IMG/VR virus record: IMGVR_UViG_3300024518_000876
Location: 26,955-90,954 of that record
DNA: 64,000 bases
From: a virus
Reading direction: 5' to 3' (one strand)
The translations under genes and the position numbers were made by a program. Shown one piece after another: positions 1,463 to 28,297 of this stretch. Each line of letters begins with the position of its first letter. Position 1 is the first letter of the stretch. The notes under the pieces were generated by a model that was not told the origin of the DNA, ran no database searches, and saw only the letters and a list, made by a program, of their open reading frames with translations.

Positions 1463-1976
1463 CTAACAGCTCTTTTAATGTTCTAGGCGTGTACTCTACT
1501 TGTTCACATGATACACAAATGTACCTCTTGTCATCAACTAGACCAAACCATTTCTTTACTTTATACTCATGGATATGTCCATGAATATTAATATTTATTC
1601 TACCTCTACCAAATTCTCTAGTATGTATCGGCGCGTGTGTAAGAAAGGCTGTTAGCTTTTCAGTTCTAAATCTTTTCTTTAACATACCTAAAACTCCATC
1701 TACATGCTCTAATAGAGTCGGTACATGTTGTCTTTTGTCATGGTTTCCTAGTATTACGTAAATTTTACCATTTAGTTTACTTAAAATAGGATATACAGCA
1801 GATTTTTCCATACTTACATCTCCTAGTATATAAGTAGTATCGTTTTTACCTACAGTAGTATTCCATTTTTTTACTATAAATGCATCTTGTTCTGATGCAT
1901 CTCTAAAACCTCTGTGTTTAGCCATGTTTTCATGCCCAAAATGGAGATCTGCAATAAATCTTGTTGTGTTACTCAT
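1452..1976 (-). CDS. Calcineurin-like metallophosphoesterase
   Basis: DLHFGH, LGD, GNHD, THAP and HGHIH metal-binding motifs in the canonical order. Confidence 0.9.
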   Translation of the reverse strand: MSNTTRFIADLHFGHENMAKHRGFRDASEQDAFIVKKWNTTVGKNDTTYILGDVSMEKSAVYPILSKLNGKIYVILGNHDKRQHVPTLLEHVDGVLGMLKKRFRTEKLTAFLTHAPIHTREFGRGRININIHGHIHEYKVKKWFGLVDDKRYICVSCEQVEYTPRTLKELLDEK

Positions 1977-4238
1977 TTCCTCTTATTTTATTAATAAATT
2001 TAGTTACTCCTTTTAAAGCGGCAGCATCTTTAGGTTTAGGTAATTCTTTAAAATAGTTCACTGCACCATCAAAGTACAATGGACATATAGTACCACCCCC
2101 ACCTTCTCTACCACCTAGTATCTCTAGAAACCTAATATTATCTTTAAAATACTTAATGTCATAACCTTTATAATCTGGTATTTCATGCCTATAAGGACTA
2201 AATAATCCTAATATGACATTAGCATCCCTCTGAGTACTTTTGTTGTCACCTAAGCCATCCATTGTAGGTTTTAACCTGTTGGCTTTAGCATTTTCAACAC
2301 TTTCTTGAGCTGATGCTTGTTGTTGTATAGCTACTGGTATGTAATTATACATATTTCTTAATTTTACAAAATAATCTGAAGATAATTTACTTATACAATC
2401 ACGTAAGTTAAGTCGTTTGCCTTCTAAGCTTTCAGTACTTAATAAACCTATATGATCTACAATACACATTACGTATTCTTCTGGATTATTTGGTTCATAG
2501 TAATCAAACAATTCTGTGTCTTTACCATGAATTTTTACAGTTTTATAAATTTTAGTACCATGCGTTTCTGCATAGCCCCTCATAAATTTATATATACCTG
2601 TAGGATTTCTAATATCATCAATAAATGTAACTATTTTTTCTACCTGTTTAAAATACTCTTCATATTTTAAGATAAGTTCTAATTTATCTTTTGATAATAC
2701 TTTATCTGCTTTAGTACTCCTTAAATCTTTAGGTGCAATTCTCACACCTTCTTTAATATAAAGTAAATTACTAAAAGCAGATCTCATCTTCTCTTCTTTA
2801 GACATTTCTAAAGAGAAATAAAAGATTTTTAATTTAATATTTAATTTCTTATCTAACACTTGTTGTATAGCATTATATAAGAATAACCAATCAGTTATTT
2901 GCGTTTTCAGCGTTTGTTACTACAAAATTATAAATTTAAAAAGGAATACATTCGTCGCGTTGTAATTCCTCTTGTAAAGCAGCTAGTTGTTCAGTAAGTC
3001 TTTCTTTTTTTAATCCTATATATGACATTACTGTAAAAAAGTCAAACTCATCGGCGTAACTAATATTATTTCTAACAATATAATCATTGTAGTCATAAAA
3101 AAGATAATCTACTAATACTCTACGCTGAGGTTCTTCGCTAAGTCTGTGTTTTGTAGTTCTCCAACCATTTGTATGAAATACTATTTTACGTACATCAGGA
3201 CAATATATAAGCATTTTTCCTGTTTGTTTCAATCCAATAATACTATAAATCACTCTTAGTAATTGTTGTGGAGAAACATTTTCAAAATAAGTGTTACTGA
3301 TTTTTAATAAATCACCAAAAGATCTTGCTTTACCCGCTTTACATTGCATTCTTTTTAAATGGTAGTTTTTTGCAGAGTAGGTAGGAGGAAACTGTGTCCA
3401 ACCTTCTACTTCTCTATTATAAAGAGCAGTTATAAAAGTTTTTAAGTTTGCCCTATCTTCTTCGCTAGGCAAATCTGCCGGTCTAATATATATTTTTTCC
3501 ATTTTTATTTTTTATAATTTTGTGATTAAGTCATTTCTGCTTAATTCTACATGTCACCATGTAGCTCGGACTATCTCATCAACCTATTCCAATATGCATC
3601 ATCTTTTATACCATTACAATCTGTACAGACGTCAATAGTTTTAAACCCATAATGAGGGTCTTTACATACACATTTTGATTTTATAGGTTGCTCCTTGTTA
3701 GTCTCTACACCGTTTTGTTCAAATAGTTCATAAATTAAATTAGAAGCTCTAACACATAAATCAGGACTTGCTCCATAATATTTTGCATTAGCTAATTCTA
3801 ATGTAATTTCATCTACTTCTTTCTCAATTGACGGCACGGGATTGTCTTTAAGCTTAACAATTTTGTTAGCTACTCTAGTAGCTTCATCTACCTTAGATGC
3901 TTCTGTCATTCTAGTACAGTTGTCTAAGGACTGTTTAATAATTTCATAAACTTCTGTCATTTTGTTCGTATTAAAGGGTTTCCCCGTTAGCTATTATTTT
4001 AATAACCCCCTTGTTAGGGATTCAGAGTTTTCTGTACATATCTCTACATACAGGGGCAAATTCTACCCACTTTACTGTTGGCTGTTATTAGATAGTATTT
4101 ACCTTGTTCTATACCTGGAATTTCATTCTCAAATCTAGGTAATCCCCAAGGTAAGCAGTTGATTTTACCAGAAAGGATTCGTTCCCTTCTTTCTATCAAA
4201 TCATCATACACTCTATTAAATAAACTATTTTCCTTCAT
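1969..4238 (-). CDS. dnaB: DnaB-like (SF4) replicative helicase, spliced: exon 1 4238-4065, exon 2 2907-1969 (about 370 aa)
   Basis: Joining GGT(4067-4065) to AAA(2907-2905) restores Walker A ...YLITANSKVG|KTQITDW... in frame with FYFSLEMS, CIVDHIGLL (Walker B) and QRDANVILGL; both ORF-track fragments join in frame. Confidence 0.9.
2936..3502 (-). CDS. Intron-encoded protein of unknown function (188 aa), looped out of the P9 extension
   Basis: ORF lies wholly inside the intron, enclosed by a perfect 13-bp stem (3511-3523 with 2922-2934); no LAGLIDADG, GIY-YIG or HNH motif seen by eye. Confidence 0.8.
   Translation of the reverse strand: MEKIYIRPADLPSEEDRANLKTFITALYNREVEGWTQFPPTYSAKNYHLKRMQCKAGKARSFGDLLKISNTYFENVSPQQLLRVIYSIIGLKQTGKMLIYCPDVRKIVFHTNGWRTTKHRLSEEPQRRVLVDYLFYDYNDYIVRNNISYADEFDFFTVMSYIGLKKERLTEQLAALQEELQRDECIPF
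3571..3960 (-). CDS. Putative intron-encoded protein (129 aa) overlapping the ribozyme core, with C-terminal CxC...CxxC
   Basis: 390-nt open frame in AT-rich DNA with an A-rich leader (AACAAAATG); the stop codon UAG is the 3' strand of P7. Confidence 0.55.
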   Translation of the reverse strand: MTEVYEIIKQSLDNCTRMTEASKVDEATRVANKIVKLKDNPVPSIEKEVDEITLELANAKYYGASPDLCVRASNLIYELFEQNGVETNKEQPIKSKCVCKDPHYGFKTIDVCTDCNGIKDDAYWNRLMR

Positions 4239-8847: not shown

Positions 8848-8861
8848 ATTAATTTGTTTAG

Positions 8862-25894: not shown

Positions 25895-28297
25895 ATGGGA
25901 AGAATTAATAATTCAGGACAACCTCCACAAAGGTTGGCATATAAAAGTAAGACTAAAAAGTGGCGTAAAGATAACGTAGAATTTGCAGATAAACATAGTT
26001 TTTATCATAGTGAAAGTGTACGCCAAACTTTAAAAAATAAAATAGTTAACCTCAATTTATACAATGGAATTGTGGATGTGCAAGATATGACACATGTAGT
26101 TAACCCACATAGTATAGAAGCTGACTTTGTACCAGATAATATACCTCATCATCCAATAGCTGTACCTAAAATAGATTTACTAGTAGGAGAACAAGCTAAA
26201 AGAAGGTTTGATTGGTCTGTTATAGTAACTAATTCAGATGCTATTAGTAAAAAAGAAGAAGATAAAAAGAAAATGCTTCAAGGTAAAATTACTGAATTTT
26301 TACAAAGTAATTATGAAAATGAAGAACTAGAAGCCAAAATGAAAGGTTTGCAAAAATACATGAAGTATGAATGGCAAGACTTACGTGAAAGAATGGCTAA
26401 CCAAATTTTAAAGCATTATTGGGCAGAGCAGAACTTTTCTAAGATGTTTACTAATGGGTTTAAGAATGCTTTGATAATGGCAGAAGAAACTTACCAAGTA
26501 GGTGTAGAACACGGCGAACCTTTTGCTAAAATGCTAAACCCATTAAAAGTACATGCGGTAAGAAGCGGAAATTCAGATAAAATAGAAGATTCTAATATTA
26601 TAATAGTAGAAGACCACTGGAGTACAGGAAAAATCATAGATGTGTACCACGATGAGTTAAAACCATCAGATGTAGATAAAATAATGGAATATACTACTAC
26701 TTCCGGTAGTGGAAGTTACGACGATGATGATAGTAACCATACTTTGTTAAGAGATGGAGCAGATGAGTTAATAGGTTCTTATTTAAATATAGCAGAGCTA
26801 AATGGACATTACTTTTCATCTGATTACACAGATACAGATGGTAATATGAGAGTATTACAAGTATTTTGGAAAAGTCTTAAAAAAATTAAAAAAGTAAAGT
26901 ATTATGATGAAAGTGGAGAAGTACAATATAAAATACGTTCTGAAGAATATATAGAAGATAAAGATTTAGGAGAAGAGTCTACTTCTTTATGGGTTAATGA
27001 ATGGTGGGAAGGTACTATGATTGGAAAAGATATTTTCTTAAATATGAAACCTCGTAGTATTCAATACAATAAAATAAATAATCCTTCTTATTGTCATCCG
27101 GGCATAATTGGACAAATATATAACACTAATCAAGGTAGAGCTATATCCTTAATGGATAGAATGAAAAACTATCAGTATTTATATGATGCAGTTTGGGACA
27201 GATTAAATAAAGCTATTGCTAGTAATCATGGTAAAATTCTTGAATTAGATATAGCTAAAATACCAGAAAACTGGGAAATTGATAAATGGTTACACTTTGC
27301 AGTAGTAAATAAAATTGCAGTAATGGATTCTTTTAAAGAAGGTAATCATGGGGCAGCTACTGGTAAACTTGCAGGATCTATGAATACTGTAGGGGGGAGA
27401 GCTATTGATTTAGATACTGGTAATTACATACAACAGCACCAACAGCTTTTGGAGTTTATTAAAAATGAAATGGGTGAAATAGCTGGAGTATCTGCACAAA
27501 GACAAGGACAAATCTCAAATAGAGAAACTGTAGGAGGTGTAGAAAGATCAGTTAATCAGTCATCTCATATTACAGAGTATTGGTTTTTACAACATGAGTC
27601 TGTTAAGGTAAGAGTACTATCTGCTTTTTTAGAAACAGCTAAGTTTGCTTTAAAAGGAAAAAACAAAAAAGCACAGTACATATTAGATGACCAATCTATC
27701 GCTATGTTAGAGATGGATGGAAATCAATTTGCTGAGTGTGATTATGGTTTAGTTGTGACTAATAGTACTAAGACAATGGAGTTAGAACAGATGTTAAAAC
27801 AATCTGCACAAGCATTTATGCAAAATGGAGGTTCTATGTCTGTACTAATGGATATTATGTTTGCACCATCATTAATGGATATGCGTCGCAAGTTAGAAAC
27901 TGCAGAAGAAGAAGCACATCAAAGATCTCAAGAAGCTCAACAAGCACAAGCTAAACAAGCTGAAGCTCAGATGCAAGCTCAAATGCAAGCAGAACAAGCT
28001 AAGATGCAGTTGGAACAAGCTAAGTTACAATTAGATGAAGCTAATAACATTAGAGACAATGAGACTAGGATTAGAATGAAAGAAATGGATGTTATGAATA
28101 GTGGAGAAGAAGTAGAAGCAACTGAAGCACCATTAGATAGAGAGAAGTTTGAGAATGATAAAAACAATTTTAATCAAGAGTTAGAGCTAAAGAAAGAAAA
28201 ACAAAGAGACGATAGAAAAAAACAACAAGATGATGTAAAGTTAAAAGAAAAAGCATTAACTGTGCAAAAACAAAGTAAACAAAATAGCAATAGCTAA
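25895..28297 (+). CDS. Portal protein (likely start MGRINN at 25895)
   Basis: About 800 aa after TerL; NEWWEG, AGVSAQRQGQI and ETVGGVERSV segments and a Q/A-rich coiled-coil tail as in crAss-like portals (recalled). Confidence 0.82.
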   Translation: MGRINNSGQPPQRLAYKSKTKKWRKDNVEFADKHSFYHSESVRQTLKNKIVNLNLYNGIVDVQDMTHVVNPHSIEADFVPDNIPHHPIAVPKIDLLVGEQAKRRFDWSVIVTNSDAISKKEEDKKKMLQGKITEFLQSNYENEELEAKMKGLQKYMKYEWQDLRERMANQILKHYWAEQNFSKMFTNGFKNALIMAEETYQVGVEHGEPFAKMLNPLKVHAVRSGNSDKIEDSNIIIVEDHWSTGKIIDVYHDELKPSDVDKIMEYTTTSGSGSYDDDDSNHTLLRDGADELIGSYLNIAELNGHYFSSDYTDTDGNMRVLQVFWKSLKKIKKVKYYDESGEVQYKIRSEEYIEDKDLGEESTSLWVNEWWEGTMIGKDIFLNMKPRSIQYNKINNPSYCHPGIIGQIYNTNQGRAISLMDRMKNYQYLYDAVWDRLNKAIASNHGKILELDIAKIPENWEIDKWLHFAVVNKIAVMDSFKEGNHGAATGKLAGSMNTVGGRAIDLDTGNYIQQHQQLLEFIKNEMGEIAGVSAQRQGQISNRETVGGVERSVNQSSHITEYWFLQHESVKVRVLSAFLETAKFALKGKNKKAQYILDDQSIAMLEMDGNQFAECDYGLVVTNSTKTMELEQMLKQSAQAFMQNGGSMSVLMDIMFAPSLMDMRRKLETAEEEAHQRSQEAQQAQAKQAEAQMQAQMQAEQAKMQLEQAKLQLDEANNIRDNETRIRMKEMDVMNSGEEVEATEAPLDREKFENDKNNFNQELELKKEKQRDDRKKQQDDVKLKEKALTVQKQSKQNSNS

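Follow-up and report, generated by a model that had tools for sequence, protein, structure and literature searches.

Group I introns are excised in two steps, in which a guanosine attacks after the U of the wobble pair in P1 and the freed exon then attacks after the terminal G of the intron. In crAss-like phages, group I introns have been described in core replication and structural genes, where they were traced via endonuclease domains in the human-gut Delta and Zeta groups, and DnaB was not among the intron-bearing genes listed (Yutin et al., 2021, PMC7886860). At the protein level, the P-loop of DnaB is interrupted by inteins at insertion point b (Novikova et al., 2016, PMC4760082). Here we analyzed a stretch of 64,000 nt (hereafter the window; positions 26,955 to 90,954 of the IMG/VR virus record IMGVR_UViG_3300024518_000876), in which a predicted gene for a DnaB-like replicative helicase is divided within its Walker A motif by 1157 nt. 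Region 4064-2908 of the window is very probably a group I intron located between the Gly and Lys codons of this motif. The window belongs to a virus record of 103.5 kb, which is rated 100% complete. The nearest named relative of the phage is Cellulophaga phage phi14:2 (Crassvirales, Steigviridae), and DNA identical to that of the phage is present in seawater metagenomes. All genes in the intron region are encoded on the minus strand, and all window coordinates given below refer to that strand.

The two parts of the helicase, exon 1 (4065..4238; 58 codons, ending ...ITANSKVG) and exon 2 (1969..2907; 312 codons, starting KTQITDW...), both matched the PHROG family phrog_19, DnaB-like replicative helicase, and were colinear with intron-less homologues, on which PF03796 (DnaB_C) was found (63-68% identity). 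Exon 1 closes with AAC AGU AAA GUG GGU (N S K V G) and exon 2 opens with AAA ACG CAA AUA ACU (K T Q I T), the break being located between GGU (Gly58, 4067-4065) and AAA (Lys59, 2907-2905). Joining 4065 to 2907 gives ANSKVGKT, which agrees with the Walker A pattern GxxxxGK[ST] of RecA-type ATPases. Judged from these matches, the host gene is taken to be a DnaB-like replicative helicase.

The exon 1 reading frame (4238-4044) encodes MKENSLF...GKYYLITANSKVG followed by seven intron codons (RICPCM, then UAG), while the exon 2 frame, beginning KTQITDWLFLY..., is open from 2907 down to 1969. The in-frame UAG (4044..4046) is found 7 codons past the 5' splice site, inside P2, and unspliced RNA codes only for a 64-residue peptide stopping at this codon (4046-4044). 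Since a P-loop cut between G and K would be non-functional as two pieces and the frame is closed so early, a functional helicase would require splicing, in agreement with what had been proposed in a sequence-only reading of the window. That reading had also tied the onset of replication to splicing; a role of splicing in timing replication is speculation. Other kinds of intervening sequence were considered as well: an intein was ruled out by the in-frame stops, a group II intron was ruled out as there was no reverse transcriptase and no matching structure, and translational bypass was ruled out because 1157 nt is far too long.

A total of 80 related helicase loci, designated below by L numbers, were fetched from IMG/VR and analyzed for helicase continuity by tblastn. 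The helicase was unbroken in about 35 related contigs, while in about 25 it was broken at residue 58/59, with 0.76-4.1 kb separating the two halves. The presence of the intron at this site is therefore polymorphic, and both interrupted and intron-less alleles occur. Around the insertion point, the intron-less allele would read AAAGTGGGT^AAAAC. When compared codon by codon with uninterrupted genes, the spliced window sequence aligned with more than 20 of them throughout ...SKVG^KTQITDW.... The predicted split NSKVG|KTQ by a 1157-nt intron could thus be given exact bounds. Among the approximately 25 insertions at the window's site, 19 were extracted for comparison.

The intron (2908..4064) starts after U(-1) and finishes with a terminal G at 2908. 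Its helix names follow from the RF00028 alignment of a compact intron at the same site (L009), and all of the elements that had been claimed from the letters alone (P1, P10, P2, P4-P5, P7, P8, P9 and the terminal G) were located and assigned coordinates. P1 is formed by the last four bases of exon 1 (GGGU, 4068-4065) and GCCC (4057-4054), and its U.G pair marks the splice site. A possible P10 pairs UUU (4060-4058) with the AAA of exon 2 (2907-2905), and the internal guide sequence UUUGCCC (4054..4060) supplies GCCC for P1 and UUU for P10. The P2 hairpin CUGUAUG...UGUACAG (4032..4053) is replaced by a hairpin of other sequence, usually with a GUAA loop, in every relative. P3 (CUCU, 4027-4024, with GGAG, 3694-3691) is followed by two extra hairpins, CCCUaacaAGGG and GUUAUU..AAUAGC (3990..4019), which were obtained in a ViennaRNA fold of bases 1-110; the second of these houses an ORF (open reading frame) in relatives. 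P4 (ACGGGG, 3987-3982, with UCCCGU, 3841-3836) fits the Rfam P4 consensus in the L009 alignment and is connected by J4/5 (AAA, between the 5' strands of P4 and P5) to P5 (CUUUAA, 3976-3971, with UUAAAG, 3851-3846). The 3' side of P5-P4 (3836..3851) consists of UUAAAG, J5/4 ACAA and UCCCGU.

P6 (GCCGU, 3835-3831, with ACGGU, 3713-3709) encloses an insertion of about 117 nt. P7 (GAGACUA, 3705-3699, with UAGUCC, 3573-3568) is located within the J6/7-P7 consensus GGUGUAGAGACUA, the Rfam consensus being AGACUA/UAGUC. The stem ACCUAU (3688-3683) with AUAGGU (3587-3582), which carries a 95-nt loop, was aligned as P8 by RF00028, and J8/7 together with the P7 3' strand, UGAUGAGAUAGUCC (3568..3581), agrees with the Rfam consensus UgAAGAUAUAGUC. 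The P9 hairpin CUACAUG-GUGA-CAUGUAG (3547..3564) was identified by the RF00028 alignment and by covariation. It is followed by the P9.1 hairpin (3525..3546) and by P9.2 (2922..3523), a perfect 13-bp stem of ACAAAAUUAUAAA (3523-3511) and UUUAUAAUUUUGU (2934-2922). The 3' tail AGUAACAAACGCUG (2908..2921) ends with the terminal G, and most relatives end ...AACAAAAUUG. The conserved junctions of group I introns, namely an A-rich J4/5, a J6/7-P7 ending AGACUA and a J8/7-P7' ending GAUAUAGUC, were all found in the window as AAA, GGUGUAGAGACUA and UGAUGAGAUAGUCC, and the core segments AACGGGGAAA, GACAAUCCCGUGCC, GGUGUAGAGACUA and GAGAUAGUCC are common to the window, L009 and 17 other introns. Reading AGUCCGAG as P3' together with the 5' strand of P7 was rejected, as the RF00028 alignment of L009 gives AGACUA for the P7 5' strand and UAGUC for the 3' strand. 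In comparison with L009, the window is expanded by 30 nt (the two hairpins) between P3 and P4, by about 119 nt in P5 and by the insertion in P6, and it has the 95-nt P8 loop and a 576-nt P9.2 loop. All of these expansion sites are places where relatives hold whole ORFs.

Covariation was judged over about 18 homologous introns at the window's site, and for P3 over eight loci. P3 was paired in all eight, with five combinations (CUCU/GGAG, CUCA/UGAG, UUCC/GGAA, UUCA/UGAA and CUCA/UGGG). P4 alternates between ACGGGG/UCCCGU and ACGGUG/UACCGU, a compensatory change of G-C to U-A, and P7 between GACUA/UAGUC and GACUG/CAGUC (L001 and L022), a compensatory change of A-U to G-C. P8 displayed many stem variants, such as ACCUUUUU/AAAAAGGU, ACCUAGUA/UAUUAGGU and GCCUAA/UUAGGU, and a compensatory change of U-A to C-G was observed in P9. 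RNAalifold detected six pairs with both sides changed in P9 and P9.1 together; in P9.1, five stem pairs were changed on both sides among eight sequences. Even P1 follows this pattern, since L023 has GUU instead of GUG in the exon and, in compensation, GCCAA instead of GCCC in the guide. The P9.1 loop CAGAAAUGA (3539-3531), of 9 nt, was invariant in 11 introns while its stem varied freely, which suggests a putative tertiary contact or protein-binding site.

The compact intron in L009 (L009:4229-4447), when scanned alone, gave a full-length match to RF00028 of 67.1 bits (E 3.7e-17), above the gathering score of 50 bits for this model. In the distant homologue L069, an insertion of about 260 nt located about 6 nt upstream of the window's site scored 37.4 bits (E 2.8e-8). 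The window itself gave a partial match at 3746-3547 (30.9 bits, E 4.8e-6, in a 586-nt scan), which covered P8, J8/7, P7' and P9, and at the gathering threshold Rfam identified no intron in the window, nor in 14 related loci. The low score of the window tracks the ORF-sized insertions in P5, P6, P8 and P9.2, which probably account for it, and the Rfam misses are an artefact of filtering and insertions, as L009 reached 67 bits once it was scanned alone. AT-rich introns with large insertions were systematically missed by default-filter Rfam scanning. The Infernal check proposed along with the intron gave a full-length match for the relative and a partial one, below the gathering score, for the window, and taking the lack of a covariance-model match as a refutation would have misled. 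Homology to bona fide group I introns was also found for the P7'-P9 segment (J8/7, P7' and P9), which is 81-91% identical to many phage genomes over stretches of 35-44 nt. Matches were obtained in T4T, where the match lies within nrdD, a known intron-bearing gene, as well as in Staphylococcus, Bacillus, Vibrio and Acinetobacter phages. The placement of a group I intron within Walker A is therefore upheld by the full-length match in L009, the covarying helices and the roughly 25 contigs interrupted at the same site.

Several observations weigh against this assignment. The window's own intron scored below the gathering score, an Rfam scan of 1.6 kb in evalue mode gave no intron match, and a genome-level RF00028 search did not recover it. 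P1 and P3 are only 4 bp each, and about 30 nt with two hairpins separate P3 from P4 in place of the 3-nt J3/4 of canonical introns; a spacer of such kind is unusual for group I introns. No known homing-endonuclease domain was detected in the window's intron by Pfam or PHROG, and one of the frames carried by the intron (ORF1) passes through the catalytic core and would compete with folding if translated. Some of these features would also be expected if the element were a group I intron that had decayed and lost its splicing activity, leaving the helicase as a pseudogene and replication to a host or other helicase; the score under the Rfam threshold, the large peripheral insertions, the atypical P3-P4 spacer and the lack of a recognisable endonuclease all fit such decay. 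However, the junctions and helices of the core are all intact and agree with those of covarying relatives, both exons are open with 60-73% identity to uninterrupted homologues and without frameshift, about 25 related contigs retain the interrupted gene at this site, and the low score is accounted for by insertions in the loops where ORFs sit in functional introns. The intact exon sequences and the completeness rating of the record also argue against a dead gene, and we regard decay as very improbable.

We infer the occurrence of splicing in this group I intron, together with its autocatalysis and its efficiency and the roles of its ORFs, from the features described here. In the proposed pathway, the helicase pre-mRNA would fold into the P1-P10 architecture, and free guanosine bound in P7 would attack the phosphodiester after U(-1), at the U.G wobble of P1 (GGGU/GCCC). 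The freed 5' exon, held by the guide, would then attack after the terminal G (2908), with the short P10 (UUU/AAA) aligning exon 2. Ligation would give GGU-AAA and re-form the P-loop A-N-S-K-V-G-K-T. Only spliced mRNA would yield a helicase with a P-loop, while ribosomes on unspliced RNA would halt in P2, and the intron with its expanded peripheral loops would act as a platform for mobile elements. Searches of public sequencing runs, including four marine metatranscriptome runs, yielded only assembled contigs of related strains, none of which joins exon 1 to exon 2, and some of which cross the boundary between exon 1 and the intron unspliced. Because such libraries may include DNA or precursor RNA, and rare forms are lost from contigs, the absence of a spliced junction there is uninformative on splicing.

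Two passenger ORFs are located in the intron. ORF2 (2936..3502) encodes 188 aa with the motif RSFxDL ... YCPDxxKxV and a winged-helix-like N-terminal half, and it fills the P9.2 loop exactly. It had no Pfam, PHROG or PDB sequence-profile match, the ESM Atlas gave no specific family, and fold searches (Foldseek against PDB, AFDB and BFVD; VIA-align) gave no nuclease or other specific family. A comparison with LAGLIDADG, GIY-YIG, HNH, His-Cys, PD-(D/E)xK and EDxHD nucleases gave no profile match and only weak winged-helix fold matches. The AlphaFold2 model, built on an alignment of homologues (pLDDT 86.5, pTM 0.84), weakly matched winged-helix DNA-binding domains (best Z 5.3) and also matched one uncharacterised phi14:2 protein (BFVD E 4e-5). 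The invariant residues of ORF2 are R60, S61 and C101, with no acidic residue among them. Going by this model, ORF2 looks like a DNA-binding protein.

Four close homologues of ORF2 were identified in a large protein database, and about 18 divergent ones among the fetched loci. They were found in the same intron position, in other loops, or as two copies per intron (L016 and L030). Free-standing homologues were also located directly upstream of intron-less helicases (L029:4323-4751, L020:832-1245 and L025:3199-3603), a layout that resembles free-standing homing endonucleases beside their target gene. By the distribution of its sequences, ORF2 appears to behave like a mobile gene, and in light of the modelled fold it is likely a mobility or DNA-targeting factor of the intron. 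LAGLIDADG-type endonuclease ORFs are typical of mobile group I introns, and LAGLIDADG_2 endonuclease ORFs were identified in other loops of the same intron lineage (L008:3801-4421, L015:3761-4381 and L057:2639-3259; 3e-34, 1.3e-18). A single intron of the lineage can carry as many as four or five ORFs, and the majority of these ORFs belong to no Pfam family.

ORF1 (3571..3960) comprises 129 codons and crosses the P5 insert, P4', P6, P7, P3' and P8 into P7', and its motifs 'DNPVPS', 'NGVET' and 'NKEQP' are sequences of the RNA core read as codons. In 8 of 10 relatives, this frame was free of stops over 57-89 codons, compared with 4-8 and 8-18 stops in the other two frames. In many copies, the frame is closely preceded by an ATG and includes a Cys-rich stretch within the P8 loop. 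The frame seems to have been kept open, to judge by the distribution of stops. In a codon test against L005, pN/pS was 0.84, and purifying selection on the ORF1 protein could not be demonstrated by this test. Compact relatives such as L009 are without ORF1.

These ORFs raise the question of whether the element, although derived from a group I intron, depends on a cofactor, either an ORF1 or ORF2 maturase or a host factor, and is not truly self-splicing. The short P1 and P3, the expanded J3/4 with long loop insertions, the core frame open in most relatives and the nucleic-acid-binding type of fold of ORF2 without a nuclease motif would be consistent with this. However, near-neutral evolution of the ORF1 protein would be odd for a maturase, and the compact relatives do without ORF1. 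We consider cofactor dependence rather unlikely, though it deserves some weight, and it is a variant of group I splicing rather than a true alternative to it.

The free-standing relatives of ORF2 also bear on a different explanation, in which the helicase is a gene in pieces whose fragments are translated separately and assemble, the intervening DNA being inserted free-standing mobile genes. The nrdA of phage Aeh1, split by a homing endonuclease, is a precedent for such an arrangement. The two ORFs between the fragments are in line with it, a GTG at 2859 offers a possible start for a C-terminal fragment, and phi14:2 is annotated in this way. In RefSeq, the phi14:2 intron is unannotated: exon 1 appears as the hypothetical g024, exon 2 as a truncated 'DnaB' g029, and g025-g028 as separate genes. 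However, a break between G and K leaves neither fragment with a complete nucleotide-binding loop, an ORF starting from GTG 2859 would be without KTQITDWLFLYNAIQQ, and it would be left unexplained why the non-coding parts fold into a group I core that covaries and is bounded exactly by U and G. A gene in pieces therefore appears even less probable than a decayed intron, and we retain the group I intron as the explanation of the split.

Further introns were observed close to the window's site. In ten relatives (L006, L007, L014, L015, L016, L023, L030, L044, L045 and L049), a second group I intron is located 9 nt upstream, after the AGT of Ser55. The upstream intron of L006 (L006:2297-2607) matched RF00028 at 2298-2546 with 99.5 bits (E 8e-27). 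In these ten loci the two introns flank a 9-nt micro-exon, AAAGUGGGU, encoding Lys-Val-Gly. Another intron (L032:3290-5000) follows the GU of the Val57 codon, 4 nt upstream of the window's site. When the micro-exon loci are counted as well, three insertion positions fall within about 13 nt of the sequence coding for Walker A. Kilobase-sized breaks of the helicase were also found at other positions in L057 (about residue 93), L063 (about residue 162), L061 (279/280), L064 (about residue 256) and L083, which are probably additional introns or inteins. In the whole 103.5-kb genome, a motif scan detected no second intron of the window's family. A phage-encoded transfer-messenger RNA (tmRNA) is located at 8859-9236 of the window (RF00023, 58.2 bits, E 3e-20).

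A joint reading of the insertion positions and the passenger ORFs can be offered tentatively. The approximately 13 nt encoding the P-loop may be a multi-intron hot spot in marine crAss-like phages, the lineage of the window's intron may serve as a cargo platform, whose various loops accommodate as many as four or five ORFs and whose core is crossed by a frame kept open, and ORF2 may represent a novel class of protein for intron mobility or homing. We think it somewhat doubtful that all three parts hold together.

The analysis corrects gene models, since the helicases of the window's phage, of phi14:2 and of about 25 related contigs would each be one spliced gene rather than a truncated DnaB with hypothetical genes. 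As Rfam scanning and searches for endonuclease domains both miss introns laden with ORFs, the intron load of marine crAss-like phages is probably underestimated. The uncharacterised winged-helix family and the frame crossing the core provide leads on how introns move and on how translation and ribozyme folding coexist. No description of a group I intron in the Walker A motif of a phage helicase was found in the literature, in a search that was not exhaustive.

The introns described by Yutin et al. (2021) belong to the same viral order as the window's, which however is carried by a marine relative of phi14:2 and has no recognisable endonuclease domain; therefore, it would be missed by an approach based on such domains. 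Inteins are known to favor the P-loop of DnaB, and the intron would add the corresponding case in RNA. The P-loop inteins of DnaB splice as protein, whereas the frame of the window is closed by stops and splicing would be needed at the RNA level.

The phage introns of the T4 td and nrdD (sunY) type, with their relatives in Staphylococcus, Bacillus, Vibrio and Acinetobacter phages, resemble the window's intron in the U.G splice site, the terminal G, the sequences of P4, J8/7 and P7 and the GUGA-closed P9 hairpin. They also share with it an ORF in a peripheral loop and an early in-frame stop past the 5' splice site, and they likewise interrupt genes of DNA metabolism at a highly conserved codon. 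The window's intron differs from them in its host gene, a predicted replicative helicase, in its marine crAss-like phage, in the two hairpins between P3 and P4, and in its two ORFs, neither of which is a known endonuclease and one of which overlaps the catalytic core. Subgroup IA2 (T4 td-like) is defined by the additional hairpins P7.1/P7.2, located between P7 and P3'. These two elements (3705-3699 and 3694-3691) are separated only by ACAA in the window, while the L009 subfamily has a 35-nt insert there. The window's intron has no P7.1/P7.2 and in this respect looks unlike canonical IA2. Another close counterpart is the helicase intron of phi14:2 itself (NC_021806, our L001, 1141-3756), which is inserted at the same site (ANSKVG|KSQ) and has the same core sequences. 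That intron is 2616 nt long and holds four ORFs (g025-g028) in different loops, of which g027 is the ORF1 homologue, whereas the intron of the window has two ORFs within its 1157 nt.

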